Below are positions 1,248-62,224 of a DNA stretch of 64,000 bases, piece by piece. Source of the stretch: Nannocystis bainbridge (GTDB lineage Bacteria > Myxococcota_A > Polyangia > Nannocystales > Nannocystaceae); NCBI RefSeq assembly GCF_028368995.1, contig NZ_JAQNDL010000001.1, forward strand, positions 1,664,001 to 1,728,000. Reading direction: 5' to 3'. The translations under genes and the position numbers were made by a program. Numbering within the stretch: the stretch's first letter is position 1; each line of letters opens with the position of its first letter. The notes under the pieces were generated by a model that ran no database searches, was not told the origin of the DNA, and was given only the letters and a program-made list of their open reading frames with translations.

Positions 1248-3116
1248 ATGCTGCCTCGCCCGCCCCGCACGGTCCTCACATTCGCGGCCCTGGCCCTGCT
1301 GGGTTGTCCGCGGCCGCCGGCGAGCGAGGCGCCGGCGCGGACCTCCCCGCCGATCGCGGCGGAGCTGGTGATCCGCGACGTCCGGCTGTTCGACGGCGAA
1401 ACGGTGGTCGCCCGCACGTCGGTCGCGGTCCAGCGCGGCACCATCGTCGCGGTCGGGCCCGACCTCGTGGTCGCCGACGGGGCGGTCGTGATCGACGGCG
1501 CCGGCCGGACCCTGCTGCCGGGCCTCATCGACGCGCACACGCACATTCAGTCGGGCGACCAGCTGCGCCAGGCGCTGGTGTTCGGGGTGACCACCGAGCT
1601 CGACATGTTCACCCTGCCGGCGGTGACCGGGCCGCTGCGCAAGGCCGTCGCCGGGGCCGGTGGGCGCGCCATGGCCGACTTTCGCAGCGCCGGGATCCTC
1701 GCCACCGCGCCGGGCGGGCACGGCACCGAGTACGGCTTCGCCATCCCGACCCTCACCGGCCCCGACCAGGCCCCCGCGTTCGTCGCGGCCCGCCTGTCCG
1801 AAGGGTCCGATTACCTCAAGATCGTGCTCGACGACGGCTCCGGCTTCGGCCGCACGAGCCCCACCCTCGCCGTCGACACCGTCCGGGCCCTCGTCGCCGC
1901 CGCGCGCTCGCAAGGCCTGACGACGCTGGTCCACGTCAGCAGCCAGCGCGAGGCCACCGCGGCGATCGAGGCCGGCGCCGACGGCCTGGCTCACGTGTTC
2001 GTCGACGCCCCCGCGACCGACGCGTTCGTGGCCCTGGCCCGCGACAAGCGGGTGTTCGTGACCGACACGCTGGCGGTGATCATGGGGCTGTGCGAGCGCG
2101 ACCACGGCAAGGCGCTGGCCGCCGATCCGGAGCTGGCGCCGTTCCTCGGGCCGGGCGAAGAGCGGGCGCTGAAGACCGGCTGGCCGGTCACCGTGCCGGC
2201 GGCGACGTGCGAGGCGGCGCTGGCGAGCGTCGGCGCCCTGCACCGCGCGGGCGTGCCGCTGCTCGCCAGCACCGACGCGCCCAACCCCGGCACCGTGCAC
2301 GGCGCCTCGCTTCACGACGAGCTGGCGCTGCTGGTGCGCGCCGGCCTGCCGGCGACCGCGGCGCTGGCGGCGGCCACGTCTGTCCCGGCGGACAGCTTCA
2401 AGGCGATCCTCGGCGATCGCGGCCGCGTGGCCGTGGGCAAGCGCGCCGACCTGCTGCTGGTGCGCGGCGACCCGACGGTCGACATCACGAGCACGCGGGC
2501 GATCGAGGCGGTGTGGAAGGCCGGGCAGCGGCTCGACCGCGACAGCTACCGCCGGGCCGTGGCCGAGGAGCGGGCGGCCGTCGAGGCCCAGCGCTCCGCC
2601 GCGCCGCCGCCCGGCGCGGAGTCGGGCAAGATCGCCGCGTTCGAGGCCGGCAAGCTGGCGGCGGAGTTCGGCGCCGGCTGGCAGCCCGGCACCGACGCGC
2701 TGATCGGCGGCGCCTCGACGGTCGAGCTCGGGCTCGCCAAGAAGGGCGCGCGCAAGAGCAAGGGCGCGCTGCGCATGACCGGCAGCGTGGTCGAGGCCGA
2801 GCGGCCGAAGTGGGCCGGGGCGATGTTCTTCCCCGGCGACGAGCCGATGCAGCCGGCCAACCTGCGCAAGTTCACCCGCCTGGTGTTCGCCGCCCGCGGC
2901 GACGCGCCGGGCGCGATGACGGTGATGCTGTTCGCGACCCAGTTCGGCATCGCCCCGGTGCGCAAGGAGCTCGCCGTCAGCCGCGAGTGGAGCGAGTTCT
3001 CGGTCGATTTCGCCGCGCTCGGCCTGACCGAGGCCCACGACCTGACCGGCCTGTTCTTCGGCGCGACCCAGGCCGGCGCGTTCGCGCTCGAGCTCGACGA
3101 CGTCCGGCTCGAGTAG
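1248..3116 (+). CDS. Metal-dependent amidohydrolase with C-terminal CIA30/CBM11-like domain, probable lipoprotein
   Basis: PGLIDAHTH, YLKI, LVH, LAH and STD metal-binding motifs; GKRADLLLV; C-terminal beta-sandwich; LALLGC signal. Start trimmed from ORF 768..3116. Confidence 0.85.
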   Translation: MLPRPPRTVLTFAALALLGCPRPPASEAPARTSPPIAAELVIRDVRLFDGETVVARTSVAVQRGTIVAVGPDLVVADGAVVIDGAGRTLLPGLIDAHTHIQSGDQLRQALVFGVTTELDMFTLPAVTGPLRKAVAGAGGRAMADFRSAGILATAPGGHGTEYGFAIPTLTGPDQAPAFVAARLSEGSDYLKIVLDDGSGFGRTSPTLAVDTVRALVAAARSQGLTTLVHVSSQREATAAIEAGADGLAHVFVDAPATDAFVALARDKRVFVTDTLAVIMGLCERDHGKALAADPELAPFLGPGEERALKTGWPVTVPAATCEAALASVGALHRAGVPLLASTDAPNPGTVHGASLHDELALLVRAGLPATAALAAATSVPADSFKAILGDRGRVAVGKRADLLLVRGDPTVDITSTRAIEAVWKAGQRLDRDSYRRAVAEERAAVEAQRSAAPPPGAESGKIAAFEAGKLAAEFGAGWQPGTDALIGGASTVELGLAKKGARKSKGALRMTGSVVEAERPKWAGAMFFPGDEPMQPANLRKFTRLVFAARGDAPGAMTVMLFATQFGIAPVRKELAVSREWSEFSVDFAALGLTEAHDLTGLFFGATQAGAFALELDDVRLE

Positions 3117-3179
3117 CGCTGTCCCCGAGGACATGCTCCGCGGGACATGTCCTATCTGACATGTCCCGAAGGCATCCTC
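3115..3179. repeat. GACATGTC 14-bp-pitch array (about 5 units)
   Basis: CATG-core positions 3118 (degenerate), 3132, 3146, 3160, 3173 (degenerate); begins at the stop codon of the amidohydrolase. Confidence 0.9.
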
Positions 3180-3195
3180 GCGCCGTCGCGGGCGC

Positions 3196-3244
3196 TTGAC
3201 TCGCGCCCGCACGACATTTAGACGTTAACCTAAACGTCCAAATG
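3196..3244 (+). promoter_or_regulatory. Palindromic operator CATTTAGACGTT-N6-AACGTCCAAATG overlapping a sigma70-like promoter (TTGACT-17-TAGACG), antisense to the ArsR gene
   Basis: 11/12-bp inverted repeat at 3215-3244; similar to the site at 3683-3712. Confidence 0.55.
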
Positions 3245-3265
3245 AACGCAAGCACGACCGGTGCT

Positions 3266-3547
3266 TCACAGCTCGGCCAGGCGGGCCAGGTAGGCTCGCC
3301 AGACGTCGCGCTGGAACACCACGTGGGCGAATTTGCCGTCGCGCACGATCTCGACCAGCCCGGCGGTCTCGAGCTCCTTGAGGTGGTGCGAGATCGTCGC
3401 CTGACTGACCGCGTGACACTCGACGATCGCGGCGCAGGGCATCTGCTGCGCGCGGTCGGCCGCCAGGTCTTGCAAGATCTTGAAGCGCCGCGGCTCGGCC
3501 AGGGCGCTCGAGATCCGCTGGACCTGCTTGTCCGTCAAGCGAGTCAT
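3266..3547 (-). CDS. ArsR/SmtB family transcriptional regulator
   Basis: [11 protein letters not shown]...[18 protein letters not shown] winged-HTH signature, 93 aa. Confidence 0.92.
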
Positions 3548-3663
3548 CGCCAGGGCAGCGTAACACGGGGACCGCCGCGACCCTAGCCCGGCGGGCGGCC
3601 GTGTGCGCGGTCACGGCGACACGGCGGTCCGGGCGCGCGGCGACGAAAAACAGCGACGGTGAT

Positions 3664-3712
3664 TTGCGCCCGGCTCATTCGTCATTTAGATTTTCATCGA
3701 AACGTCGAACTG
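3664..3712 (+). promoter_or_regulatory. Putative SDR promoter (TTGCGC-17-TAGATT) with overlapping palindromic operator CATTTAGATTTT-N6-AACGTCGAACTG
   Basis: AT-rich island in the divergent ArsR/SDR intergenic region; -35 at 3664-3669, -10 at 3687-3692. Confidence 0.6.
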
Positions 3713-3735
3713 ATAACACGACGGGGAGAGCGGAC

Positions 3736-4488
3736 ATGGTCGAGTCATTGAAGAACAAGGTCGCGGTCGTCACCGGGGCGTCCAAGGGCATCGGCGCGGG
3801 CATCGCTCGCGCGCTGGCGGGCGCTGGCGCGGCGGTGGTCGTCAACTACGCCGGCGACCGGGCGGGCGCCGAGCGGGTCGTCCGCGAGATCGTCGAGCGC
3901 GACGGCAAGGCCGTCGCGGTCCAGGCCGACGTGGCCAAGGCGGCGGACGTGCGGCGGCTGCTGGCCGAGGCCCGGCGTCAGTTCGGCCGGCTCGACATCC
4001 TCGTCAACAACGCCGGGGTGTTCCGCTTCGATCCGCTCGAGGCCGTCACCGAGGCCGAGTTCCACCGCGAGTTCGGCGTCAACGTGCTCGGGCCGCTGCT
4101 GGCCGTGCAAGAGGCGCTGAAGTACTTCGGGCCCGAGGGCGGCAGCGTGATCAACATCGGCTCCTCGGTGACGCGCCGGCCGGCCCCGCAGTCGGTCGTC
4201 TACACCGCCAGCAAGCACGCGCTCGACGGCATCACCCAGGCCCTCGCGGCCGAGCTCGGGCCGCGGAAGATCCGCGTCAACTCGATCAACCCCGGCCCGG
4301 TCGACACCGAGGGCGCGCGCACGCTCGCCGTGATCGGCAGCGAGTTCGAGCGCCAGATGGTCGCCGCCACCCCGCTCGGGCGCGTCGGCCAGCCGGACGA
4401 CATCGCCGCGGTGGCGCTGTTCCTGGCCTCGCCGGCGTCCGGGTGGCTGACCGGCGAGATCCTCACCGCCTCCGGCGGGCTGCGCTGA
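3736..4488 (+). CDS. Short-chain dehydrogenase/reductase (FabG/glucose 1-dehydrogenase-like)
   Basis: [17 protein letters not shown] motifs; GGAG RBS upstream of ATG 3736. Confidence 0.93.
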
Positions 4489-4580
4489 CCGGCGGGTGGG
4501 CAGGCCCGCTCGCCGGGCTTCGATCTGGTGCCACGCCGGCCACGGCTGCGGTGGCGCGCGAATCGGCGTAGCATGATCGA

Positions 4581-5084
4581 ATGCATGGTTTGCGATGCGA
4601 CGCTCCGGGCTTCAGCCCCCCGATCTCGCGGTGCGGCGCGGCGCTGTTGGGGGCCCTGCTGGTGGCCAGCCAGGCCGGCTGCGAGAGCTGCTCCTTCAAC
4701 CACGGCGGCATCGAGCTCGAGGTCGCCGTGCAGCTCGTCGACGAGGCCGGCCAGCCGCTGACGGCCGCCGAGTTCGAGAAGCGGCGGGCCGCGGCGACGG
4801 TCACCACCTGCGTGCACGGTCGGGACGTCGAGCAGTGCGACACCGACCCCACGTATTACGCGACGCCGCACCCCGAGCCGGCGATCGCAACCTTTTACGT
4901 CGGGGTCGGCGGCGAGGCGTACGAGCCCTCGGCCGTGTCGCGCCGCTGTTACTTCCCGTCGCTGCGGGTCAAGGTCGAGATCCCCGGCTGCGACACCGGC
5001 GAGCACGAGGTCCCCGGCGCGCGCACCGACGGCTACGGCCCGATGCTCGTCGAGACGCTCAAGCTCACCTGCGGCGCGGCGTAG
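4581..5084 (+). CDS. Hypothetical Cys-containing secreted protein or lipoprotein
   Basis: Hydrophobic signal followed by AGC, coding-like GC3 bias; start uncertain. Confidence 0.6.
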   Translation: MHGLRCDAPGFSPPISRCGAALLGALLVASQAGCESCSFNHGGIELEVAVQLVDEAGQPLTAAEFEKRRAAATVTTCVHGRDVEQCDTDPTYYATPHPEPAIATFYVGVGGEAYEPSAVSRRCYFPSLRVKVEIPGCDTGEHEVPGARTDGYGPMLVETLKLTCGAA

Positions 5085-5106
5085 ACATGTGCCTCGGGAC
5101 ATGTCC
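5083..5106. repeat. GACATGTC 14-bp-pitch array (2 units)
   Basis: AGACATGTGC and GGACATGTCC, cores at 5086 and 5100, filling the gap between convergent stops. Confidence 0.8.
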
Positions 5107-5111
5107 GGCGA

Positions 5112-5486
5112 TCACGGCCACACGTTGGAGCCCGGCGCGCCGGCCAGCGGGCGGCGGGCGTCGATGACACAGAAGCGCTGGCCGGTCGGCGCCTCCATCA
5201 CCACCCAGCGCGGGCCCCGGGCGACCTGCCGGGCACCGAGGCGCTCGAGCCGGGCGACCTCGGCCGACTGGTCGTCGGTCTCGATGTCGAGGTGGAGGCG
5301 GCTCGGGTGGCTGACCCGCTGGACCTCGATGTGCAGGTCGCGGGCGCTGGCGTCGAGCACGGCGTAACCGTGGCCGTCGTCGCCCTCGGAGGCCATGCCG
5401 AGCGCGCGGCTCCAAAACGCGGCGGCGTCGTCGGGCGGGGTGTCCTGGCAATCGATGATGAATCCGGCGAGGCGGCTGTGGTGCAT
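5112..5486 (-). CDS. VOC/glyoxalase family protein
   Basis: MHHSRLAGFIIDC...AAFWSRALG...RLHLDIET...WVVMEAPTGQRFCV. Confidence 0.88.
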   Translation of the reverse strand: MHHSRLAGFIIDCQDTPPDDAAAFWSRALGMASEGDDGHGYAVLDASARDLHIEVQRVSHPSRLHLDIETDDQSAEVARLERLGARQVARGPRWVVMEAPTGQRFCVIDARRPLAGAPGSNVWP

Positions 5487-5566
5487 CGCGAGGGTGTACC
5501 AGAGCCGCCCGCGCGAGGACCACGGCGAATGCGGCGAGTCGCCGAGCGGGCTCGACGGTATGCGGC

Positions 5567-6013
5567 TCAGCGGCGATGGCCGTAGTAGAACCGTGGAAAG
5601 GCGCGGGCCTGAAACTCGGCGATCAGCTCGCGCGGGAAGAACGGCAAGGTGTGGAGCTCGGCCAGCGGGACCCATACGATGCCGCTCTGCCAAGCGTCCG
5701 GCGAGAGCATGCGCAGGGTCTGGCCGGGCAGCAGGCGGCCGTGCACGAACACCTCGACCTGATGGAAGCCGGGCGGCAGGTTGGTGACGGCCAGGCGGTC
5801 GGCGATGATCTCGCGGATGAAGGCGACCGCGCCGAACTCGGCCTGCGCCCCGAGCTCCTCCTGCAGCTCGCGGTGGAACGCCTCCTCGAGGGTCTCGTTG
5901 TCCTGGACGCCGCCGCCGGGGGTCACGTACCACGGCCCGCCGGCGTCCTCGAATTGCTCGAGCAGGATGTTGTCGTCCTCGACGAGGATGGCGCGCACGG
6001 CGAGACGCGGCAT
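5567..6013 (-). CDS. NUDIX hydrolase
   Basis: Nudix box PGGGVQDNETLEEAFHRELQEELG. Confidence 0.9.
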   Translation of the reverse strand: MPRLAVRAILVEDDNILLEQFEDAGGPWYVTPGGGVQDNETLEEAFHRELQEELGAQAEFGAVAFIREIIADRLAVTNLPPGFHQVEVFVHGRLLPGQTLRMLSPDAWQSGIVWVPLAELHTLPFFPRELIAEFQARAFPRFYYGHRR

Positions 6014-6201
6014 GGTGCGCGCGACGATAGCGGATCGCCGGCGCGGCGCATACGTCCGCGGCGACGGCCCGAGCCGACGCCGGGGCCGGACGCGAGGGCG
6101 TCACGAGTTCGACGGCCGGCGGCGCCCGCAGGAGGACCCGCGCGAGGCGCGAGGCGACGGGTCACGTCGTCGCGGCGGGCCGTCGAGCACGGATCGGCGG
6201 A

Positions 6202-6267
6202 AAGCATGGCTTTTACGACATGCCCCGATAGACATGTCTTTTCGGACATGTACACGGGAACATGCCC
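6202..6267. repeat. GACATGTC 14-bp-pitch array (5 units)
   Basis: CATG at 6205, 6219, 6233, 6247, 6261; just downstream of the AraC stop. Confidence 0.95.
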
Positions 6268-6282
6268 TTTTTAAAAAGCATC

Positions 6283-7191
6283 TCAGTCGCGCCCGCGCAG
6301 CGCCCGGCGGTAGGCTTGCGGCGGGGTCCCGCGCGCGCGCACGAAGGCGCGGGTGAACGCGGGTTCGCTGGCGTAGCCGACGCGGGCGGCGATCGCCTTG
6401 ACCGGGGCGTCGGTGGTAGCGAGCAGGCTGGCGGCGCGGTCGAGGCGGAGGCGGCGGAGGTAGCTGCCGACCGGCTCGCCGAGCAGCGCGGTGGCACGGG
6501 CGGCCAGCACCGAGCGCGACATCCCGACCTCGGCCGCCAGCTCGCCGAGCGCCCACGGCTTCTCCGGCTCGGCGCGCAGCCGCAGCAGCGCCGCCACCAC
6601 CCGGTCGTCGCGCAGCGCCTCGGCGCCCGGCAGCGCCGCGCCCTCGACCCGCAGCGCGTGGGCGAACAGCGCCTGCGCCCACGCGGCGGTGATCGTCTCG
6701 CGCAGCGACGGCGACAGCGCCCGGGCCCGCCCGAGCAGCGCCAGCGTGTCCGCCAACCAGCCGCCGAGCTCGCGGTCGTCGTGGGTGACGTGCACCACCG
6801 CCGGCAGCAGCGACAGCCACGGCGCGTCGGCGTGATCGATCTGCAGGTCGACGATCACGAGGCTCGTCGTCGCCGCCGCCGCGCTGGCCCACACGTCCGC
6901 CGCCGTCTGGTGCATGCCGACGCAGGCGCTGCCGCCCGGCGGCACCAGGGTGCCGGGGCCGTCGCGGATCACGTGCTCGTCGGCGCGCGGGAGGAAGGCG
7001 AGCTCACCTGGCCCGAGAGACAGGCTCTTGCCCGCGACTCGCAGCTCGCCGCCGCCGTGCAGCGCGGCGTACAGCTTGGCGCTGCCGCACGCGGCCCGAC
7101 GATGCTTGCCCCACCGCCCGCCGAGCTCGAGGGTGTTGACCTCGCTGCCGAGGACGACGAGAGAGCGCGCCAGCGCGTCGAGCCCGGTCAT
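6283..7191 (-). CDS. AraC family regulator with cupin_6-like N-domain
   Basis: C-terminal PEKPWALGELAAEVGMSRS...VGYASEPAFTRAFVRARGTPP double HTH. Confidence 0.92.
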   Translation of the reverse strand: MTGLDALARSLVVLGSEVNTLELGGRWGKHRRAACGSAKLYAALHGGGELRVAGKSLSLGPGELAFLPRADEHVIRDGPGTLVPPGGSACVGMHQTAADVWASAAAATTSLVIVDLQIDHADAPWLSLLPAVVHVTHDDRELGGWLADTLALLGRARALSPSLRETITAAWAQALFAHALRVEGAALPGAEALRDDRVVAALLRLRAEPEKPWALGELAAEVGMSRSVLAARATALLGEPVGSYLRRLRLDRAASLLATTDAPVKAIAARVGYASEPAFTRAFVRARGTPPQAYRRALRGRD

Positions 7192-7206
7192 CGCCGCGAA
7201 GCATAC

Positions 7207-7294
7207 CCCACGGCGGCTCGCCTGGCCCGTCCGCGGGCACGCCGGCCTATAACCCACGGCGGCTCGCCTGGCCCGTCCGCGGGCACGCCGGCCT
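7207..7294. repeat. Exact 42-bp direct repeat x2 (period 46) in the divergent AraC promoter region
   Basis: CCCACGGCGGCTCGCCTGGCCCGTCCGCGGGCACGCCGGCCT at 7207-7248 and 7253-7294. Confidence 0.9.
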
Positions 7295-7407
7295 GTCGCA
7301 GAGTCGCGCCGGCGCACCTCGCTGGCCCCTCGCTCAGGACGCGCGGATCGGCGATCCGGACGCGCGGTGCGGCCGGCCGCATTAGCCTCACGACCATGGG
7401 AGACGCC

Positions 7408-7857
7408 ATGCAAGACCTTGCACAGGATCCACCGCGCCGCGCGACCGAGCTGCTCGCGGATCACCTCGAGTGGATCGCCCGCGACATCGAGCGCTGGCTG
7501 CAGCTGTTCGCCGACGACGCGGTCGTCGAGTTCCCTTACGCCGTGCGCCTCGGGATGCCGACGCGGCTGACCGGCAAGACCGCGATCGCCGAGTACTTCC
7601 GACGCACGCCGGGCGTGTTCCGCGACCTGCGCTTCCGCGACCTGCAGGTCCACGCGACCACGAACCCCGAGGTCGTGCTCGGCGAGGTCCACGGCTCGGC
7701 GACGCTGGCCCCGGGCGGCGAGGTCTACGAGCAGGACTACGTGATGGTGCTGGAGTGCCGCGCGGGGCAGATCGTGCGCTACCGCGAGTACTGGGATCCG
7801 TCCGCGGCGAGCGGGTTCCGCGACGGCCCGGTCCGCGCCGCGCTGGGAGGTGGGTGA
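7408..7857 (+). CDS. SnoaL/NTF2-like protein (PhzA/B-like)
   Basis: LFADDAVVEFPYA...YEQDYVMVLECRAGQIVRYREYWDP; GGAG RBS. Confidence 0.88.
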   Translation: MQDLAQDPPRRATELLADHLEWIARDIERWLQLFADDAVVEFPYAVRLGMPTRLTGKTAIAEYFRRTPGVFRDLRFRDLQVHATTNPEVVLGEVHGSATLAPGGEVYEQDYVMVLECRAGQIVRYREYWDPSAASGFRDGPVRAALGGG

Positions 7858-8675
7858 TGCGCGCGCTCGTCACGGGAGGCACCGGCAAGACCGGCAGCGC
7901 GGTGGTCCGCGGGCTGCGAGCCCGCGGCGCGGTGGTGAAGATCGCCAGCCGTCACCCGCGCGACCCGGACGCCGTCGGCTTCGACTGGGCCGATGTCTCC
8001 TCACACGACGCGGCGCTCGCGGGCGTCGACGCCGTCTACCTGGTGGCGCCGGGGCTGGTCAGCGATCCCGAGCGACTCATGGTGCCGTTCATCGACCGCG
8101 CGGTGGCCGGCGGCGTCCAGCGCTTCGCGCTGCTCAGCTCCTCCGCCATCGAAGCGGGGACGCCCGGCCTCGGCGCGGTGCATGCGGCCCTGCGGGCACG
8201 CGCGCCGGCGTGGACCGTGCTGCGCCCGTCGTGGTTCATGCAGAACTTCGTCGACCCGCAGCACGGGATCGGCCGCGGCGTCCGTGAAGCGCGAGCGTTC
8301 GTCAGCGCCAGCGGCGCGGGGCGGATCGGCTTCATCGACGCGGAGGACATCGCCGCCGTCGCCGTGGCGACCCTGTTCGCCCCGGCCGACGCCGACCTGA
8401 TCCTCACCGGCCCGCAGGCGCTGTCCTACGACGAGGCCGCGGCGATCCTCTCGGAGGTGCTCGGCGAGCCGGTGACCCACCGCGCCATCACGGTCGAAGC
8501 CTGGTGCGCCCGCCTCGTCGCCGCCGGCATGCCCGCCCCGTACGCGGCGATGCTCGGCGCGCTCGAGCAGGCGATCGCGGGCGGGGCCGAGGACCGCGTG
8601 ACCGACGAGGTCCTGCGCCGCACCGGCCGCCCGCCCCGCTCGCTGCGAGCGTTCGCGCAGGCGGCGTTACAGTGA
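7857..8675 (+). CDS. NmrA-like atypical SDR (EasG/ergot-alkaloid-protein-like)
   Basis: VTGGTGKTG, FDW, LRPSWFMQNF, FIDAEDIA, LTGP; start overlaps the upstream stop (TGATG). Confidence 0.9.
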   Translation: MRALVTGGTGKTGSAVVRGLRARGAVVKIASRHPRDPDAVGFDWADVSSHDAALAGVDAVYLVAPGLVSDPERLMVPFIDRAVAGGVQRFALLSSSAIEAGTPGLGAVHAALRARAPAWTVLRPSWFMQNFVDPQHGIGRGVREARAFVSASGAGRIGFIDAEDIAAVAVATLFAPADADLILTGPQALSYDEAAAILSEVLGEPVTHRAITVEAWCARLVAAGMPAPYAAMLGALEQAIAGGAEDRVTDEVLRRTGRPPRSLRAFAQAALQ

Positions 8676-8696
8676 CGCGGCAGTCGTGACTTGTTC

Positions 8697-8747
8697 TCGA
8701 ATGACCTGAAGGACATGTCCTATACGACATGTCCTTCGGACACTGCG
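8697..8747. repeat. GACATGTC 14-bp-pitch array (3-4 units)
   Basis: Cores at 8700 (AATG), 8714, 8728, 8741 (degenerate). Confidence 0.85.
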
Positions 8748-8880
8748 CCGCAGCGGCACGGTCTGCGAGCTGGAGCAGGCCCGGCGGCCCCCCAAAGCCA
8801 GTACCCAACCGCGGTTGGAGCGACCAACGCGGCCTGCCCGTTCGAGCCCCGGAACCACAGGAATCGCGGCCCGTGGAGCC

Positions 8881-8895
8881 TGGCACGCCGCTTGC
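8881..8895 (+). promoter_or_regulatory. Putative sigma54 -24/-12 promoter
   Basis: TGGCACG-CCGC-TTGC, exact match to TGGCACG-N4-TTGC, immediately upstream of ATG 8911. Confidence 0.55.
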
Positions 8896-8910
8896 CTTGG
8901 CCGGTACAGC

Positions 8911-10815
8911 ATGTCGAACCGCGCCCGCCTCTATCCGCTCCTCACGCTCTGCACCCTCGGTTGCTCTCTGCCCGCCGACTCCGGCGATATGGCCGCCACG
9001 ACCGACGATTCGAGCTCGAGCACCTTCGCCGAGCCACCGTCGCTCACCGATTCGCTGATCTCGACGACGCTCGCGGACGCCACGACCACCGGCGACGGTG
9101 ACGACATCGGGGCGCCTCCCGGCGCGCCGGGCCTCGTCCTCGATTATGCGCCGATCAAGCAGTTCATGTTCTCGTGGGACCCGGTCGACGGCGCCGACTA
9201 TTATCAATTGCTGGAGCGCCCCTACCCCGAGGTCCCGGGCTGGTCGCAGTTCGGCGCGGACCAATTCGAGACCTCGCTCGCCCTGACGATGCCGATCCAC
9301 CGCCGGCTGTCCGCGGCTTACAAGCTGCGCGCCTGCAATCGCTTCGGCTGCAGCGAATCGGAGCCGGTGCCGGTCGGCCCCGCGGTCGACGCCGCGATCG
9401 GCTATTTCAAGGCCTCCAACGCCGAGAGCCACGACAACTTCGGCCACAGCCTCGCCATCTCGGCCGACGGCTCGACCATGGTCGTCGGGGCCCCGTACGA
9501 GGACAGCGGTGCGCGCGGCGTCGGCGGCGACGAGCTCCACAACTATGCGCCGGACAGCGGCGCCGCCTACGTGTTCGTCCGCGACGGCGACACCTGGAAG
9601 CAGCAGGCCTACCTCAAGTCCGCCAACGCCGAGGCGGATGACCAGTTCGGCGCGGTCGCCATCTCCGCGGACGGCGACACCATCGCCGTCGGCGCTCCGC
9701 GCGAAGCCAGCGCGGCGACCGGCGTCGGCGGCGATGCCAAGGACAACAGCATGGCCGCCGCGGGCGCGGTCTACGTATTCGAACGCACGGCCGGGGTGTG
9801 GAAGCAGGCGGCGTACGTCAAGGCCAGCCATACCCGGGAGCTGAGCCAGTTCGGCGAGGCGCTGGCGCTCTCCGCCGATGGCCACACCCTCGCGGTCGGG
9901 GCGCCGGGCGAGGACAGCGCCGCCACCGGCGTCGACGGCGACCCGTGGCAAGGGCTCGCCGAGGACTCCGGCGCTGTGTATGTCTATTCGCGTGAGGGCG
10001 GCGATTGGCAGCACCGCGCGTACCTCAAGGCCGCCAATGCCGGCGCGGCGGATCGGTTCGGCGTCGACCTCGCGCTGTCCGCCAACGGCGCCACCCTGGC
10101 TGTCGGCGCCCCTTACGAGGCCAGCAATTCCGCGGGCATCGACGGCGACATGTCCGACGATTCGCAGAGCTCGGGCGCGGTCTATGTGTTCACCGCGAAG
10201 ACCGGCGCCTGGTCGCAGGAGGCATACATCAAGGCGTCGAACCCGGGCCTGGGGGACTGGTTCGGGTACTCGGTGGCGCTGACGCCCGACGGGGACATGC
10301 TGGCCGTCGGCGCGCCGGCCGAGTCCTCCGCCGCCACCGAGATCGACGGCGACCCGTGGAACGACGCGGCGCCGAGCGCCGGGGCCGTCTACATGTTCTC
10401 GCGCCTGGGGCAGACCTGGCAGCAGGATGCCTATCTCAAGACCCCGAACGCGGGGGCGGGCCACTCGTTCGGCGCCTCGGTGGCGCTGTCGGCCGACGGG
10501 GGCGTGCTCGCCGCGGGTGCCGCGACGCAGGACGGCGGCGGCGTGGGCAGCTTCCCCGCCTCAGCCGGGGCGAGCGCGCCCGAGTCCGGCGCGGCCTATG
10601 TGTTCTCGCGCGTGGCCGGCACCTGGAAGCACCAGCGCTACCTCAAGGCGCCGAACTCCCGCCACGACATCCACTTCGGCGGGTCCATCGGGCTCACGTC
10701 CGACGCCGGCACTCTGGTGATCGGGGCGCCCCTCGAAGACAGCGCTGCCACCGGCGTCGGCGGCGATCTCCACGACGCCTCCGGCTCGCGGGTCGGCGCG
10801 GTGTACATGTATTGA
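8911..10815 (+). CDS. Integrin-alpha-like FG-GAP beta-propeller lipoprotein
   Basis: TLGC lipobox; about 6-7 repeats of YxKASN...FGxxxAxSxDGxTLAVGAPxE...GAVYVF. Confidence 0.92.
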   Translation: MSNRARLYPLLTLCTLGCSLPADSGDMAATTDDSSSSTFAEPPSLTDSLISTTLADATTTGDGDDIGAPPGAPGLVLDYAPIKQFMFSWDPVDGADYYQLLERPYPEVPGWSQFGADQFETSLALTMPIHRRLSAAYKLRACNRFGCSESEPVPVGPAVDAAIGYFKASNAESHDNFGHSLAISADGSTMVVGAPYEDSGARGVGGDELHNYAPDSGAAYVFVRDGDTWKQQAYLKSANAEADDQFGAVAISADGDTIAVGAPREASAATGVGGDAKDNSMAAAGAVYVFERTAGVWKQAAYVKASHTRELSQFGEALALSADGHTLAVGAPGEDSAATGVDGDPWQGLAEDSGAVYVYSREGGDWQHRAYLKAANAGAADRFGVDLALSANGATLAVGAPYEASNSAGIDGDMSDDSQSSGAVYVFTAKTGAWSQEAYIKASNPGLGDWFGYSVALTPDGDMLAVGAPAESSAATEIDGDPWNDAAPSAGAVYMFSRLGQTWQQDAYLKTPNAGAGHSFGASVALSADGGVLAAGAATQDGGGVGSFPASAGASAPESGAAYVFSRVAGTWKHQRYLKAPNSRHDIHFGGSIGLTSDAGTLVIGAPLEDSAATGVGGDLHDASGSRVGAVYMY

Positions 10816-17769: not shown

Positions 17770-17793
17770 CTGCATGTCCCGAGAGACACCCGT
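17770..17793. repeat. Degenerate GACATGTC 14-bp-pitch array (2 units)
   Basis: CTGCATGTCC core at 17773 and AGACACCCGT core at 17787, downstream of the GAF-kinase stop. Confidence 0.45.
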
Positions 17794-23169: not shown

Positions 23170-23207
23170 TCACATGTCCCCATGAGCATGTCCTGAGGAC
23201 CAGGCCG
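23170..23207. repeat. GACATGTC 14-bp-pitch array (3 units)
   Basis: Cores at 23173, 23187, 23201 (CAGG). Confidence 0.75.
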
Positions 23208-33600: not shown

Positions 33601-33794
33601 AGCGCCCGCTGGCGACGGTGGTGGTCGGCGGGCTGCTCTCGACGCTGTTCTTGACGCTGCTGGTGCTGCCGTGTGCGGCCTCGCTGGTCCCGCGGACCAG
33701 GGCGGGGAAGCGGCAGGGTGGTGCATCGGACATGTCCCATGCGACATGTAAAGATGGACATTCCCCGTCGGACATGAGCGCTCCCGGCCCATGA
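30645..33794 (+). CDS. czcA: CzcA/CusA heavy-metal RND permease
   Basis: IEAYPDV, SLGALDFGIIVDG (CzcA-type TM4), EFLPQLDEG, GSDVQRPLATVVVGG. Confidence 0.93.
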   Translation: MLTRLPTLALRFRLAVLFAAVLWIAAGTYALLTLKIEAYPDVSDTQVVVVTTLPGYAAEEVEQLVTVPIERALGSVPHVIGRRSRTIFGLSVVELTFDDRIDDLVARQVVLEKLRDADLPPGVSSSLGPMSSAIGEMYRYHLVSDTLTPMRLRTLQDWVVAPRLLQAPGVADVVTFGGEVRQYQVELDPLALEKYHLSIEDIDGAIEDNNANAGGGVIDNGQQAIAVRSVGQLQSAEDIASTLVGVDDGVPIFVRDVATVRIGAAPPTGIFGIDATQGGVEGLVLMRRWENPSEVLAGIHARVDALNAGEELAGARIVGFYDRSEMVGRTLRTVSRTLAEGVSIVVLVLVFLLGSVRAALLTALTIPMSLLFAFVCMKLAGVAANLLSLGALDFGIIVDGTLVMVEALVHRLQRRPDPGAPATVAELDEAACATARPIVFSLAIIIAAYLPLFMLQRIERRLFTPMAFTVSTALLGSLLLCLTLTPVLASYLFRRRVRIRDSRVMKASARAYERWIGRLVRRARLVVIVAALATVAALVVLGRRVGTEFLPQLDEGSIWIRCNLPPGLSLFKSAEVASTIRALVLQSPEVRLVSSQTGRNDSGTDPYGPNRNELLVALQPYDTWPKGQIKADLVEALAARLRAAIPGATFSFTQPILDNATEAATGSSADLAIIIRGPDLGELRRLAVQSREVVAGIPGAADTAIEQEAGQEQLRLRLRRADMARHGVDVRDVQQLVSLAIGGRPIDTVYEGSRRFAVALRFIPEARASGDAIGRLLITPHRGGRVPLAEVADIEVVEGATIIARRENHRQVTVRTNIRGRDQGSFVAEAQARLRAALQLPPGYQLEWGGQFENLERARRRLVVILPLTLGIIVSLLFFAFRSLRWALLVLACVPFSLLGGVFALWLRGIHLSVSAAVGMVSLFGVAVMSGVLLVESIRTAEADTAAESAVRGATRALRPLLLMILVALLGMVPAARATGIGSDVQRPLATVVVGGLLSTLFLTLLVLPCAASLVPRTRAGKRQGGASDMSHATCKDGHSPSDMSAPGP

Positions 33795-33829
33795 CATGTC
33801 CTCCACGACATGCCCGGAAAGACACCTTT
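33728..33829. repeat. GACATGTC 14-bp-pitch array (4+3 units), overlapping the czcA 3' end
   Basis: Cores at 33731, 33745, 33759, 33773, then a 22-bp step, then 33795, 33809, 33823. Confidence 0.92.
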
Positions 33830-39561: not shown

Positions 39562-39598
39562 AGACATGTCCCATGGACATGTCTTATGAATCACGGCG
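39562..39598. repeat. GACATGTC array (2-3 units; 13- then 14-bp step)
   Basis: AGACATGTCC core at 39565, GGACATGTCT core at 39578, degenerate core at 39592. Confidence 0.8.
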
Positions 39599-45261: not shown

Positions 45262-45263
45262 GC

Positions 45264-45371
45264 CAGCACGCTCGAAATAACATGCCCACAGGGACATGTT
45301 CTATATGACATGTCCATAATGACATCACCCAAGAGACATGTCCTCCATGACATGTCCCATCGAACATCCAA
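45264..45371. repeat. GACATGTC 14-bp-pitch array (8 units)
   Basis: Cores at 45267, 45281, 45295, 45309, 45323, 45337, 45351, 45365. Confidence 0.97.
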
Positions 45372-47654: not shown

Positions 47655-47717
47655 AGACCTATCCCGAAGTACATGTCCGTGGGGGCAGGTTAAAAACCTG
47701 TCCCTGCGGACATATAC
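47655..47717. repeat. Degenerate GACATGTC array (3+2 units)
   Basis: Cores at 47658, 47672, 47686, then an 11-bp step, then 47697, 47711; between convergent stops. Confidence 0.65.
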
Positions 47718-51115: not shown

Positions 51116-51223
51116 TCGCGTGTCGTCGAGGACATGTCCATAAGAACATGTCCTTCACGACATTTTCTTTTGGACATTCCCTCAAAGACATCTCCATTCG
51201 AGCACGTCCTAAAGATCACTCGC
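51116..51223. repeat. GACATGTC 14-bp-pitch array (8 units)
   Basis: Cores at 51119, 51133, 51147, 51161, 51175, 51189, 51203, 51217. Confidence 0.95.
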
Positions 51224-52662: not shown

Positions 52663-52742
52663 TCGCGTGCGCCTTCGGACATGCTCGAAAAAGCATGTCC
52701 GAAAGCACATTGTCCCGAAGACATGTCTTTTCAGGCATGTCC
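52663..52742. repeat. GACATGTC 14-bp-pitch array (6 units)
   Basis: Cores at 52666, 52680, 52694, 52708, 52722, 52736. Confidence 0.95.
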
Positions 52743-52823: not shown

Positions 52824-53136
52824 GCCCGGCGACCCTGGAGCCTCCGAGCGTGCATAACCTCGACCGCGCTGACCCAGCGACGCGCACACGGGCGTCCGCG
52901 TCGAGCGCCCGCTTGATGGCGACGACCTCGACCTGTCGCATTCCCGCCCGGCGACCCTGGAGCCTCCGAGCTCGCATGCCCCGATCGCGCTGGCCCACCG
53001 ACGCGCCCACGGGCGTCCGCGTCGAGCGCCCGCCGCATGGCGACGAGCTCGCCGGCCACGACCTGTAGCGTTCCGCCGCCCGACGACACTGGAGCCTTCG
53101 AGCTCGCATGCCCCCGACCCGCGCCTGGCCCACCGA
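52824..53136. repeat. Intergenic tandem repeat, about 122-132-bp unit x2.5
   Basis: GCCCGGCGACCCTGGAGCCTCCGAGC-like starts at 52824, 52946 and 53078; shared CACGGGCGTCCGCGTCGAGCGCCCGC block in the first two units. Confidence 0.85.
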
Positions 53137-53357
53137 CCTGCACGCACACCTGACGGACGGCCTGCGGGCGCCCGCCTTCCCGTGACGCGGCGCCCGCGCG
53201 GTCCGGCGTGGGCGCGCCGGACCGCGCGGGCCGAGGATGCCGCGCGCCGCCGCCACCGGCCTGCCGCCTCGCCTCGCCGCGGCTCCAGAGCCCCCACGAA
53301 AAATTTCTCCGCCCTCGTGTAGGGTTCTTTCGGCTGGCGACACTCGAGCCCTGCAGG

Positions 53358-58084: not shown

Positions 58085-58852
58085 TCACAGCAGCGTCGCG
58101 TAATCGAAGCCCGACTCGGTCACGAGGTGCACGCCCGGCGTCACCTCCACGAGCGGCGTCTCGCAGGTCGCGTCGATCGCCATGCGCGCGCCGTACAGCG
58201 GACCGGGCACCATGAACGGCGCCGACACGTGGGTGTCGAGCCGGCCGGAGATCCACAGCGTCGCGCCGACGGTGGTCTTGACGATCACCAGCGGGCTGTC
58301 GGCCGGCGTCGAGCCCTTGTTCCACGACTCGCTCCACTTCGGGCTCGCCGAGCTCGCGCCGATCTGGACGCTACAGTTTGCCCGCCCGTCGTAGAGGCCC
58401 GACCCGTCCCACGCGACCGACAGCTCGGCGCGGAAGGTCAGCGTCACCGGCGTGTTCTTCGGCAAGCTGGCGGAGGCGACCACGAAGCGATCGACGAAGC
58501 GGTTGCTGGTGTTGGCCGCGACCGCGGCGGGGAAGCTGGTCGCCTGGACCCGCGCGGCCTCGGCGGAGACGTGGCTGGACAGCGAACCCAGGTCGCTCCA
58601 GGCGAACGCCGCCGCGTCGGAGTAGAGGATCTGCGTGGAGTAATAGGCCCAGGTGGTGCCGGCCGGGTCGTGCTGCGCGTCGGCCGAGGTCTGGCCCGTC
58701 AGCGGCCCGACATACGCGGCCCCGCTGCCCGGCATGCCGCCGGTGACCGCGTGCGCGGTGACCGAGTAGTTCGGGCCCGCCGCCCGCGCCGGCGCGGCCG
58801 CTGCGAACGACGAGAGACAGGCGACAGCCACCGAGGTCGTCCAAAAGTGCAT
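58085..58852 (-). CDS. Hypothetical secreted beta-rich protein
   Basis: Sec signal ending in ARA-A; Ser/Thr/Ala-rich; coding-like codon bias. Confidence 0.75.
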   Translation of the reverse strand: MHFWTTSVAVACLSSFAAAAPARAAGPNYSVTAHAVTGGMPGSGAAYVGPLTGQTSADAQHDPAGTTWAYYSTQILYSDAAAFAWSDLGSLSSHVSAEAARVQATSFPAAVAANTSNRFVDRFVVASASLPKNTPVTLTFRAELSVAWDGSGLYDGRANCSVQIGASSASPKWSESWNKGSTPADSPLVIVKTTVGATLWISGRLDTHVSAPFMVPGPLYGARMAIDATCETPLVEVTPGVHLVTESGFDYATLL

Positions 58853-59018: not shown

Positions 59019-59070
59019 GGACATGTCCATGAGAGCATGTACTTTTAAACATGTTTAATACGACATGTCC
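59019..59070. repeat. GACATGTC 14-bp-pitch array (4 units)
   Basis: CATG at 59022, 59036, 59050, 59064. Confidence 0.95.
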
Positions 59071-59135: not shown

Positions 59136-62030
59136 TCAGCGCTCCTGCCCTGCAAGCCACGCCTCGACCTCGCGCAGCTGCCCTTGCGCCGCCGCCCCGA
59201 TCTCCCGAAACCCCTCCGCCGCAGCGCCGGCCTCCGCGAGCGCGCGGCTGCGGTCGCCGCCGGTAGCGACCAGCGCCCGCGCCAGATCGAAGTGCGCCTC
59301 CGGCTCGAGGTACTGCCGGCCCGCGCTGTCCTCATAAAGCCTCACCGCTCGCTCGAGCAGCGCCAGCGCCTCGCCCGGTCGGTCCTGCAAGTACAGGCGC
59401 CCGAGGCTGGCCAGGCTGACCGCCACGTTCGGGTGGTCGCGCCCGAGCGCCTTCTCCTTGATCGCCAGCGCTCGCTCGACCAGCGCGATCGCCTTGCCCG
59501 GGTCGCCCGTGGCCGCGTACACATTGGCCAGGTTGCCCAGCACGCGGGCCACGTCCGGGTGTTCGGGCCCCAGGCTGCGGCTCCAGATGGCGATCGCGCG
59601 CTCGTACAGCGCCTTGGCCCGCGCGTACGCCTTCGCCTCCACGTACACGTTGGCCAGGCCGTTGAGGCTGAACGCGATGTCGACGTGATCGCGGCCGAGC
59701 GCCGCCTCCTTGAGCGCCAGCCCGCGCTCGTGCAGCGCCGCCGCGGTCGTCAGGTCGCCCATCTTCGACGCCGCGCTGGCGAGGTTGCTCAGGCTCTCGG
59801 CCACCGCCGGGTGGTCCGGGCCCAGCGCCGCCTCCTGGATCACCAGCGCGCGCGCGTACAGCCGGTGCGCCGCCGCCAGCTCGCCGGCCTCGATGTGCGC
59901 GTGGCCCAGGTGCTGCAGCGACGCCGCCACGTCCGGGTGGGCCGGCCCGAGCGCCGCCACCGTCAGCGCCAGCGCCCGCTCGGCCTGCTCGCGCGCCGCC
60001 GCGAACGACCCCGCCGCCTGGTTCGTCATCGCCAGGTTGCTCAGCGTCGTCGCCACGTCCGGGTGCTCGCGGCCCAGCGCCGCCTCGCGGATCGCCAGCG
60101 CCTGCTCGTAGGCGCCGCGCGCCAGCGCATAGTCGCCGGCGACGTAGTGCAGCGCCGCCAGGCTGTTGAGCCGCTGGGCCTCGCGCAGCCGCTCGGGGTC
60201 GCCCGCGTGGGCCGCCGCGACCTCGGCGTGCTGGGCCCACGCGCGCGCCTCGGCCGGGCGCCGCTGCTTGTAGCCGACCAGGAACGTCAGCTCGGCGGCC
60301 GCCTGCGCCGCGACGTCCCACGCCCCCGCGCGCGCCGCCGCGAAGTAGGCCGCCGTGTCGGCCGCCGCCGCCCGGTCCGGCAGCGCCAGGCCGCGCGCCA
60401 GCTCGCCCTCGGCCGCGCGTGCATCCGCCACCAGCGGCGGCCAGGCCAGCGCCTCCGCCCGCGCGCGCGCCGGCTCGAGCCTCGCCAGGCCCTCCACGTA
60501 GCGCCCGGCGAGCCCGAGCGAGCGAGCCCGGGCCAGCTCCGCGCGCAGCTCCCCGACCTCGGCCCGGCCCTCGGTCGGCGGCGCGGGCAGCCGGCGCAGC
60601 AGCTCCGGGTCGACGCACGCCTCCACCCCGCGCAGGCTGGCCGCGGCCGCCACCGCCATCTGCACCGCCGTCCGGTCGGCGCGGGTCAGCTCGCCGATCA
60701 GCGACTCGATCGCCGAGCGCCGCTCGGCCAGGCACCACTCCGCGCGGTCGAACGTGCCGGCGTCCCAGCGGCCCTCGACCTCGACGCGCACGCAGGCGCG
60801 CGCGCGCGCCGACTGCCACGCGCGCACCTGGTCTTCGAGCCAGGTCGAGGTCCGGATCGCCGTCCACTCCGCCTGCGGGAACCCGGTCGCGCGGAACGCC
60901 AGCCGCAGGCGCTCGCGCGCGGCGGGGTTCCAGGTCGCGTCGAGCTCGCCCGCCTGCGCCGCGCAGCCGGCCAGCCGCCGCGCGTGGTCCCACTGGCGCA
61001 GGCCGACGATCGCCGTCACCGCCACCGCCACCGCCACCACGGTCGCCCCGAAGGCGCGCCGGCGGGCCCGCGCCTGGCCGCGGTCGAGCGCGGCCAGCAG
61101 CGCCGTCATCGACGGCCAGCGCCGCCCCGGCTCGTTCGCCAGCCCGCGCGCCAGCACCTGTCGCAGCCACGGCGGCGCCCGGCGGCCGCGCGGGGGCGCC
61201 CGCAGCAGCCCCGCCATCACCTGCGTCGCCAGCTCGATCGGCGTCTCGCCGGCGAACGGCCGCTCGCCGTACAGCAGCTCCCACGCCGTCACGCACCACG
61301 CGAACTGGTCGACCGCCGGCGTCGCCTCCAGCCCCATCCACTGCTCCGGCGCCATGTACCCCGGCGTGCCCTCGAGCGCGCCGACCCGGGTCAACCGCAG
61401 CGTCAGCAGATCGAGCCCCGTCGGCGCCGTCGTGTGGTCCGACAGACCCGGCGAAAGCACCGTCGGCTCGGGCGCTCGCCCGTGCGCCAGCCCGAAGTCC
61501 ATCACCCGCACGCGCCCGTCGCCGCCGACCATCACGTTGTCGGGCTTCAGATCGCGGTGCACCAGCCCCGCCGCGTGGGCCGCCTCGATCCCGCGGCCCG
61601 CCTCTCGCAACACCCGGAGCGCCTCCGGCCACGGCCTCGTCCGGCCCGCCGCCCACGTCCGCAGCGTCTGGCCCTCGATCAGCTCCATCGCGATCCACAC
61701 CCGCTCGCCGTGCGTGCCGGTGTCGTGGACCGCGACCACGTTCGGGTGCGACAGCTTGGCCAGCGCCTGGGCCTCGCGCAGCAGGCGGATCCGGTCGACC
61801 TCCGCGCTCTCGCGCTGGGCCCCGGGGATCACCAGCTTGATGGCGATCTTGCGCTCGAGCTCGGGGTCCCGCGCGGCGTACACCACCCCCATCCCGCCGA
61901 CGCCGAGCCGCTCGAGGATCGTGTAGCGGCCGATCCGCGCGCCCCGCGGCAGCTCGTCCTCGGACGCGAGCAGGGCCGGCTCCGAACGCACCGGGCTGGC
62001 CGTGGCCGCGGCGGTGGTGTCGAGCTGCAC
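59136..62030 (-). CDS. Ser/Thr kinase with TM and TPR repeats
   Basis: GVGGMG, IAIK, HRDLKPDN, DFG, GTPGYMAPE; LGxxHPDVA TPRs; start GTG 62030 or 62084. Confidence 0.95.
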   Translation of the reverse strand: MQLDTTAAATASPVRSEPALLASEDELPRGARIGRYTILERLGVGGMGVVYAARDPELERKIAIKLVIPGAQRESAEVDRIRLLREAQALAKLSHPNVVAVHDTGTHGERVWIAMELIEGQTLRTWAAGRTRPWPEALRVLREAGRGIEAAHAAGLVHRDLKPDNVMVGGDGRVRVMDFGLAHGRAPEPTVLSPGLSDHTTAPTGLDLLTLRLTRVGALEGTPGYMAPEQWMGLEATPAVDQFAWCVTAWELLYGERPFAGETPIELATQVMAGLLRAPPRGRRAPPWLRQVLARGLANEPGRRWPSMTALLAALDRGQARARRRAFGATVVAVAVAVTAIVGLRQWDHARRLAGCAAQAGELDATWNPAARERLRLAFRATGFPQAEWTAIRTSTWLEDQVRAWQSARARACVRVEVEGRWDAGTFDRAEWCLAERRSAIESLIGELTRADRTAVQMAVAAAASLRGVEACVDPELLRRLPAPPTEGRAEVGELRAELARARSLGLAGRYVEGLARLEPARARAEALAWPPLVADARAAEGELARGLALPDRAAAADTAAYFAAARAGAWDVAAQAAAELTFLVGYKQRRPAEARAWAQHAEVAAAHAGDPERLREAQRLNSLAALHYVAGDYALARGAYEQALAIREAALGREHPDVATTLSNLAMTNQAAGSFAAAREQAERALALTVAALGPAHPDVAASLQHLGHAHIEAGELAAAHRLYARALVIQEAALGPDHPAVAESLSNLASAASKMGDLTTAAALHERGLALKEAALGRDHVDIAFSLNGLANVYVEAKAYARAKALYERAIAIWSRSLGPEHPDVARVLGNLANVYAATGDPGKAIALVERALAIKEKALGRDHPNVAVSLASLGRLYLQDRPGEALALLERAVRLYEDSAGRQYLEPEAHFDLARALVATGGDRSRALAEAGAAAEGFREIGAAAQGQLREVEAWLAGQER

Positions 62031-62144
62031 GCGCCACCGTATCGCCCCGGCCCGCGCAATTGAAGGCCCGTTTTCGCCCGTCACGGCGCCGCGAGAGGAC
62101 CCGCGTCGGCGGGAGAGCCCGCAGGACCCGCCGGCAGCGATTCA

Positions 62145-62224
62145 TCGCATGCCCTCTCGGACATGTCCCTCACGACATTTTCAAAAGGACATGTCCTCAT
62201 GAACATGTCCATCCGACCATAAAC
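62145..62224. repeat. GACATGTC 14-bp-pitch array (6 units)
   Basis: Cores at 62148, 62162, 62176, 62190, 62204, 62218. Confidence 0.95.

Follow-up and report, generated by a model that had tools for sequence, protein, structure and literature searches.

Short arrays of palindromic DNA are dispersed along the chromosome of Nannocystis, a soil myxobacterium, where they lie mostly at the 3′ ends of genes. The window analysed here is the whole 64,000-nucleotide stretch G000:C1:1664001-1728000, taken from a genome (G000) of 11.05 Mb and 71.5% G+C in 5 contigs. The initial annotation of this window had described clear arrays of a decamer (RRACATGTYY) at a 14-bp pitch. On re-examination of the sequence, all 13 of these arrays were found, with starts slightly shifted, and the decamers at 45200-45440 and 51060-51300 matched the earlier description by inspection. 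Two further sites had been listed as weak arrays: the one at 17770 contains a single dyad and no multi-unit array, and the one at 41020 is unsupported, with only CGACA followed by a T run. The decamer occurs 17 times in the window compared with 0.19 expected, a number reached in 0/100 shuffles, and the 14-bp dyad TGTCC-N4-GGACA occurs 28 times with at most 1 mismatch compared with 1.24 expected. The individual sites are as follows.

3120..3166: a half unit TGTCC followed by three decamers (3129, 3143, 3157), beginning 4 bp past the stop of the amidohydrolase gene 1248-3116(+).
5083..5106: two units filling the 28-bp gap between the convergent genes 4647-5084(+) and 5112-5486(-); the TAG stop overlaps the first unit.
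6216..6267: four units that lie just past the stop of the AraC-family gene 6283-7191(-).
8702..8743: a half unit, two decamers (8711, 8725) and a half unit, following the stop of the NmrA-like gene 7854-8675(+).
17770..17788: the dyad CATGTCC-CGAG-AGACA, standing alone some 30 bp past the stop of the kinase gene 17815-19281(-).
23170..23193: two units (TCACATGTCC, GAGCATGTCC) between the tandem minus-strand genes 19675-23061 and 23304-24308.
33728..33815: two arrays mutually out of register, 33728-33779 (four units) and 33792-33815 (two units), which occupy the convergent gap from the AcrB gene 30645-33794(+) to the kinase gene 33835-36885(-) and overlap the final 66 nt of the AcrB reading frame.
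39562..39584: two good decamers at a 13-bp pitch, 15 bp past the stop of gene 38303-39547(+).
45278..45371: six to seven units after the citrate-synthase-like gene.
47655..47712: two units (47655, 47669) and a separate perfect dyad, TGTCCCTGCGGACA, at 47699-47712, between genes 46887-47627(+) and 47719-48018(-).
51121..51209: a half unit and six units, which follow the stop of the kinase-TPR gene 47873-51103(+).
52677..52742: five units in exact 14-bp register, 19 bp past the stop of gene 51525-52658(+).
59019..59070: four units in register (59019, 59033, 59047, 59061) between the minus-strand genes 58085-58831 and 59136-62030.
62150..62210: a half unit and four units, with the kinase-TPR gene 59136-62030(-) on one side and the thioredoxin gene 62512-62853(-) on the other.

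Decamers and the distances between them were counted across the whole genome. Perfect GGACATGTCC was found 956 times compared with once for the reversed control, and decamers with at most 1 mismatch 4116 times compared with 93. Among decamers with at most 2 mismatches, 2655 pairs were 14 bp apart, with 21 at 13 bp and 10 at 15 bp; further peaks stood at 28 bp (1235; 32 at 27 bp and 19 at 29 bp), 42 bp (953; 26 at 41 bp and 29 at 43 bp), 56 bp (461) and 70 bp (193), and the counts at 13, 15, 27, 29, 41 and 43 bp were close to the level of other off-register distances. The 28-bp peak indicates that the register is exact even across degenerate middle units, and the 13-bp step between 39562 and 39575 in the window is a rare exception to it. 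The autocorrelation peak looked for at 14 bp is therefore present, and the claim of dispersed arrays at this pitch stands far beyond chance, judged both by the window shuffles and by the reversed control of the genome. An array caller that was seeded on units of 0-1 mismatches, and that allowed up to 3 mismatches in each unit added in register, returned 3245 arrays, comprising 1093 single units and 2152 arrays of 2 to 9 units. Good units were in excess at 42 bp, and the commonest 4-unit pattern was GbbG.

The repeating unit is better described as the 5-4-5 dyad TGTCC-N4-GGACA than as the decamer. Perfect dyads numbered 1987 genome-wide compared with 3 for the control, twice the number of perfect decamers at the same number of specified bases, and dyads with at most 1 mismatch numbered 6245 compared with 164. 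Most of the latter stand alone (5306 singles, 426 pairs, 25 triples and 3 quadruples, at most 1 mismatch in each dyad). Where dyads abut, their outward halves join into GGACA|TGTCC, producing the apparent decamers at a 14-bp pitch. At one orthologous site, two relatives (G007 and G005) have exactly TGTCC-N4-GGACA|TGTCC-N4-GGACA, two abutting dyads. Profiles showed that array edges are half units in which the inner half is conserved (G at 0.60-0.79) and the outer half is at background. The outermost units had been thought the most degenerate; in 4-unit arrays, however, the outer full units are the best, and it is with half units that arrays end. In multi-unit arrays of tandem contexts, the junction CATG is best kept (C 0.97, A 0.93, T 0.91, G 0.94), while positions 2 and 7 of the decamer vary as R and Y. 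Within the window array at 52677, unit 3 (52705-52718) has an extra T (GCACATTGTCC) and is followed by a spacer of 3 nt, such that the 14-bp register of all five units is kept.

The spacers are A+T-rich relative to the genome, as first described (about 50% G+C against 71.5%), but they are not free in sequence: among 4099 spacers, CGAA/TTCG (275), GAAG/CTTC (247) and CCGA/TCGG (201) are preferred. Adjacent spacers match at 1.29 of 4 positions compared with 1.09 by chance, and a trace of slippage is visible in the frequency of identical spacers, which is 4.2% for adjacent ones and 5.2% at lag 2 (1.2% expected for each). Two loci in relatives (L139 in G005 and L141 in G007) contain tandem repeats of about 38-75 bp, each with one CATGTCC-CCGA-GGACATG dyad, and the same type of repeat was seen in G005 downstream of the ortholog of window gene 53358-54533; dyads can thus be amplified outside the 14-bp register as well.

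To place the arrays relative to genes, a home-made codon-based gene caller was used, which covered 82% of the genome and often takes an ATG inside an array unit as a start codon. Arrays of 4 or more units were located in 308 convergent, 167 tandem and 9 divergent gaps, with 52 deep in called genes, against an intergenic background of 1460 convergent, 4968 tandem and 1458 divergent gaps. The coding signal in the flanks, which is independent of gene calls, placed 402 arrays on 3′ sides and 28 on 5′ sides, and by the same kind of test a continuous frame crossed 31 of 546 arrays compared with 42% of random positions. The location at gene 3′ ends noted in the window thus holds genome-wide, with convergent gaps enriched and promoters avoided. 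In tandem contexts the distance from stop to array had a median of 43 bp and a mode of 10-20 bp, the distance from array to next start had a median of 179 bp, and profiles revealed no T run or T enrichment downstream of the arrays. An array lies within 70 nt of 753 of the 1922 convergent gene ends, and the 13 commonest 8-mers of convergent gaps are all derived from the motif. The element is found at the ends of 1519 of 7891 called genes, about a fifth, and dyads are about 8 times denser outside called genes. Of the arrays beside tRNA genes, four are on the downstream side and one is on the upstream side. Genes of higher codon-score density bear an array more often, from 10% of those in the lowest fifth to 25% of those in the highest.

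The genes neighbouring the window arrays are functionally unrelated, in agreement with the initial annotation, and include amidohydrolase, glyoxalase-like, AraC, NmrA-like, AcrB, Ser/Thr kinase, citrate-synthase-like and thioredoxin genes. Three paralogous Ser/Thr kinase-TPR genes are situated within 30 kb (33835-36885, 47873-51103 and 59136-62030); two have an array just past the stop, and 59136-62030 is flanked by arrays on both sides. Perfect dyads also occur inside window reading frames at 2381, 35256, 38365 and 38410, the last two of which encode Pro-Val-Pro-Glu/Arg-Asp in a lipoprotein.

The distribution of the element was followed through the family and beyond it. With one genome taken per species, 75 of 78 loci with exact matches to two decamers were in Nannocystis or Nannocystaceae records, and among relatives the strict pattern was present in 8/10 genomes of the same genus and 0/30 others. 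A looser junction pattern was searched in 73 genomes of the family. It was present in all ten genomes of genus g1 (8-772 per genome, with G000 highest), all five of g2 (21-24 per genome) and all seven of g4 (3-214 per genome), in one of 11 genomes of g14 and one of 11 of g10, and in none of the eight g32 genomes, the six g15 genomes or the genomes of the remaining genera. The element is limited to three genera (g1, g2 and g4) of one family. Abutting double dyads were present in three g4 genomes (239, 15 and 2 copies) and absent from 2/2 g2 genomes. Viral contigs contained 8 exact matches to the 16-base junction pattern, about chance by a rough estimate.

In the g2 genome G011 (about 60% G+C), the element is a lone palindrome of 20 bp, ACATGTCC-N4-GGACATGT, whose spacer is A+T-rich, and is usually located just upstream of the starts of lipoprotein or secreted-protein genes. 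Four of the downstream genes have DUF4215, and others have CAP, eCIS_core, OmpA and TonB_C. The G000 ortholog of the G011 gene at L093 has an array at its 3′ end, not at its promoter. At another G011 locus (L103), which has 15 tRNA genes in 1.8 kb, a dyad lies between two tRNA-Trp genes with an HNH endonuclease gene just downstream. At three more (L088, L091 and L094), near-identical tyrosine-integrase genes adjoin small Gly-Asp-repeat lipoprotein genes with an upstream dyad, and it seems that a G011 integrative element targets this lipoprotein gene family.

Comparison with five relatives that are about 75-90% identical to G000 in coding DNA showed that arrays are gained, lost and remodelled between species. 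At the stops of 6283-7191 and 47873-51103 (the 6216 and 51121 arrays), 5/5 relatives have arrays, and in these the unit number (2 to 5 units at the latter place), unit sequence, spacers and flanks all differ. At the place of the 47655 array, a dyad is found in G010, G001, G005 and G007, and the locus differs in G003. The 3120 array has an orthologous counterpart in 3/5 relatives (present in G010, G007 and G005, absent from G001 and G003) and the 8702 array in 2/5 (present in G010 and G003, absent from G001, G005 and G007, in which about 20 bp separate the genes), while the 5083 array is absent at the orthologous place in 5/5. Contigs from four DNA sequencing runs over the window, which were short and of low depth, revealed no difference in array length that was informative.

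Tandemly duplicated gene ends, as well as dyad-bearing higher-order repeats, are found beside arrays. In the window, an 89-bp tandem duplication at 45078-45264 (2.1 copies, 95% matching), consisting of the 3′ end of the citrate-synthase-like gene with its stop codon, directly abuts the 45278 array; downstream of the G005 ortholog there is neither the duplication nor the array. At the G001 ortholog of the stop at 3116 (L131), 4-5 tandem copies of about 90 bp of the gene 3′ end, including the stop codon, stand in place of the array. Other tandem repeats of the window are located at 52823-53137 (121 bp, 2.5 copies, just beyond the 52677 array) and 7203-7294 (46 bp, 2 copies), with coding ones at 41442-42510 (165/495 bp) and 51823-52647 (141/282 bp).

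Array density is also uneven along the genome (mean 9.7, variance 26.3 per 50 kb). Five hand-picked array-poor stretches of 100-200 kb have a G+C content of 0.689-0.707, compared with 0.720-0.735 in three array-rich ones. The 200-kb stretch C1:1100000-1300000 (G+C 0.689), with few confident gene calls, 18 convergent gaps and 1 array, looks like foreign or atypical DNA.

We tentatively favour, at less than even confidence, a reading of the arrays as a DNA lattice that is read by a protein and marks transcript ends. According to this model, a lineage-specific dyad, TGTCC-N4-GGACA, would have spread to the 3′ ends of transcription units in thousands of copies, with arrays growing by slippage in steps of 14 and 28 bp. 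The dyad would be the recognition site of a putative dimeric, sequence-specific protein on duplex DNA; strong dyads would nucleate binding and weaker in-register dyads would be filled cooperatively, which would account for a register that is kept despite drifting spacers and inner units. At 14 bp per step, each dimer would be rotated by about 120 degrees relative to its neighbour, and the same face would be reached again at every third dimer, after 42 bp or four helical turns. Located past stops and between convergent genes, the arrays may then serve as transcript-end marks, as clusters of bacterial interspersed mosaic elements (BIMEs) and repetitive extragenic palindromic (REP) sequences do in E. 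coli, with a possible role as roadblock, insulator or topological barrier. In transcripts from either side, the array sequence would also fold into stable, strand-symmetric stem-loops.

Several observations point towards such a protein. The motif is kept around spacers that are close to random, neighbours out of register do not rise above background, and the insertion in unit 3 of the 52677 array is offset, which together argue that sequence and register are themselves constrained. Covariation between paired positions is weak: compensations numbered 1061 compared with 783 expected, and a same-base control gave 1017 compared with 780; mean pairing in 2-unit arrays was 7.571 compared with 7.508 for shuffled partners, and neighbouring units overall pair at about 7 of 10 positions. 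The flanks of isolated dyads are complementary above chance by at most 10 percentage points at any position. An exact register over degenerate units combined with weak covariation favours a dimeric protein that reads duplex DNA. The DNA-binding protein proposed by the initial annotation is partly supported, by the register, the 5-4-5 dyad, the position-specific conservation and the 42-bp excess; the failure to find a binder, a small but significant hairpin signal and REP-like turnover count against it.

Several findings weigh against a protein lattice. Some concern pairing: perfect complementarity of the end pairs was seen 17 and 12 times in 5-unit arrays compared with 6.0 and 3.7 expected, 13.2% of 2-unit arrays have flanking 4-mers with at least 3 of 4 positions complementary compared with 7.8% (z 7), and sense-strand G-T mismatches outnumber A-C mismatches (914 to 656). 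Others concern location, since a position at 3′ ends with avoidance of promoters is unusual for operators, and 719 of the 1987 perfect dyads lie inside called genes by the home-made calls, which seems above the expectation from codon usage. Turnover counts on the same side: in a 400-kb block of G005, a multi-unit array was the counterpart of 3 of 19 G000 arrays that have a best-hit ortholog there, a rough lower bound given that the block itself has few arrays (14 with at least two units) and that many of its best hits are non-syntenic. With copy counts of abutting dyads that run from 2 to 239 within one genus, the uneven numbers and the presence or absence of arrays at given sites look like selfish or neutral turnover of the REP type. 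Finally, the search for a binding protein came back empty. Beside the G011 sites, a scan of 18 and then 38 reading frames encountered no DNA-binding regulator, the neighbours being DUF4215 lipoproteins, CAP, eCIS_core, OmpA, TonB_C, a desaturase and integrases. Searches of G000 (90.5% complete) for the REP-associated tyrosine transposase (RAYT) or Y1 transposase (PF01797; control positive in 6/14 genomes), for PadR (PF03551; control positive in 14/14 genomes) and for the p53 domain (PF00870) were all without a match. The likeness of the decamer to the p53 half-site, which had been put down to coincidence, is probably coincidental as far as this goes, PF00870 being unmatched in G000 with a control that was itself positive in 0/14 genomes.

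A more specific version of the protein lattice, in which the 14-bp steps would recruit a helically polymerising protein past stops at about a fifth of gene ends in three genera, there to act as a roadblock terminator, insulator or supercoil barrier, is in our view doubtful and rather unlikely on present sequence evidence. If true, it would amount to a genome-wide, DNA-encoded 3′-end chromatin with no counterpart described in bacteria.

The most probable rival, and a serious one, is an RNA element, which we regard as somewhat unlikely. Here, adjacent units would pair in the transcript as stem-loops past the stop and would act in both directions as terminators, whether factor-independent or Rho-assisting, and as barriers to 3′ exonucleases. 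The position of arrays right past stops and their enrichment in convergent gaps suit this account, as do the complementary flanks and the sense-strand excess of G-T (in RNA, G-U) pairs given above. Any two decamers are complementary, and of eight window stretches that were folded as RNA, seven had z values of -3.2 to -5.9, with -1.4 for 33780-33834. Compensated variants occur in relatives (GGACATGCCC-taaa-GGGCATGTCC and AGACATGTGC-tcat-GCACATGTCC). Classic U-tract terminators are at chance level in window positions 1-20000 (3 compared with 3.0). Array-free 3′ regions are also more structured than divergent controls (z -1.39 and -0.83 compared with -0.11), from which it seems that hairpins are a general 3′-end device in this genome and that arrays fill that niche. 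However, hairpins need pairing only, yet the sequence itself is kept in three genera around randomised spacers, and the pairing of adjacent units barely exceeds that of shuffled partners. Loops of 3 or 5 nt and variable gaps would be tolerated by an RNA element, yet only 14-bp steps occur. Isolated dyads have stems of 5-6 bp with little extension, there is no U tract, and UUCG loops have no strand bias (47 compared with 50).

It is less probable still, and on balance unlikely, though a serious alternative, that the arrays are selfish or neutral repeats that spread by slippage, through a putative enzyme of mobilisation or repair, or because their transmission is biased, as with a DNA-uptake signal, and are tolerated at 3′ ends where they do least harm. 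Restriction to one clade with very uneven copy numbers, presence or absence at orthologous sites, the slippage signatures in the spacers, the lower G+C content of array-poor stretches and the gene-end tandem duplications beside arrays are all in its favour. Against it, neutral indels would destroy the register, yet off-register neighbours are at background; some places are occupied in 5/5 species despite rebuilt content; and no Y1/RAYT transposase was matched in G000. Comparison of filled and empty orthologous sites revealed neither a body bounded by terminal inverted repeats nor duplication of the target, and a miniature inverted-repeat transposable element was rejected on this ground and because the arrays consist of dyads only. 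As for an uptake signal, DNA uptake sequences of Neisseriaceae and Pasteurellaceae are 10-12 bp long, present in about a thousand copies, often arranged as inverted pairs in terminators and rarer in foreign islands. The present element is likewise a family-limited motif that differs between genera and is scarce in five low-G+C stretches; uptake sequences, however, are unphased and common inside genes, whereas this one forms an exact lattice concentrated outside them. An uptake signal would have no need of a 14-bp lattice and would be expected inside genes too.

Last, it is highly improbable that transcribed arrays are a sponge or target for CsrA, offering a GGA every 14 nt in the manner of CsrB-type RNAs: the CsrA consensus is RUACARGGAUGU, every unit contains GGA and G000 has a homolog (82.9 bits), but in predicted folds the GGA is in the stem rather than the loop, and CsrA does not track the element, being found in 63/73 family genomes including those of array-free genera (g32 8/8, g14 11/11, g10 11/11).

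The arrays were also compared with described systems, and here the statement that no described bacterial element has this geometry turned out too strong, the BIMEs of E. coli and tandem MetJ metboxes being close analogues. BIMEs are phased clusters of palindromic units at gene 3′ ends; REP and BIME sequences reach hundreds to thousands of copies, have a species-specific consensus, are rapidly gained and lost, and can fold in mRNA and bind gyrase and IHF on DNA. The present elements resemble them as short palindromic extragenic units in many copies (2152 multi-unit arrays), set in ordered clusters at 3′ ends and in convergent gaps. They differ in that a REP unit is an imperfect palindrome of 20-40 bp, compared with a 14-bp, 5-4-5 unit here, and in that BIME units alternate in orientation with defined linkers, whereas these abut with zero gap in exact 14-bp register; nor does G000 have the RAYT/Y1 transposase that goes with REP sequences. 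MetJ metboxes, ParR-parC and omega iterons consist of head-to-tail units at a fixed pitch, each bound by one dimer, cooperatively, with the protein wound around the DNA. The likeness to such ribbon-helix-helix arrays is in the short, partly palindromic, head-to-tail units at fixed pitch; the difference is that those are single loci at promoters or plasmid centromeres, compared with about 2000 arrays at 3′ ends here.

Other comparisons were less close. According to an excerpt of PMC3506622, PadR operators have an ATGT/ACAT inverted motif 8-10 nt apart, and the dyad reads ATGT-CCNNNNGG-ACAT, that is, ATGT-N8-ACAT, with the single g2 site close to gene starts. PadR operators are single promoter sites, and a PadR reader was rejected for the arrays because PF03551 is unmatched in G000 (G011 has 2 matches). 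Like intrinsic terminators, the arrays have the potential for stable stem-loops shortly past stops, but no U tract follows them, and one shared sequence in an exact multi-unit register stands in place of arbitrary stems. Clustered regularly interspaced short palindromic repeats (CRISPR), with repeats of 23-55 bp and unique spacers of similar length, were rejected since the repeat here is 10 bp and the spacer 4 bp, with at most 9 units at about 2000 loci. Avoidance of restriction was also rejected, as ACATGT is undepleted outside arrays (observed/expected 1.46; CATG 1.2). No Rfam family reached gathering score in the window.

The arrays thus form a REP/BIME-like family that is specific to its clade, occurs in very high numbers and has a 14-bp dyad as its building block. 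The family appears to be undescribed, none having been found in a full-text literature whose coverage leaves subscription journals outside. Even as REP-like passengers, the elements would be a very abundant and apparently undescribed signature of Nannocystis genomes, useful for strain typing, for spotting candidate foreign DNA and for expression cassettes in a natural-product producer. Selection on spacing is seldom visible as cleanly as in this exact 14-bp register, which has outlasted the decay of the sequence. If the protein lattice is true, it would be a new bacterial way of marking the ends of transcription units, and it would offer a handle on how transcription is stopped or insulated in genomes of more than 70% G+C with few U-tract terminators, as seen over 20 kb of this one.

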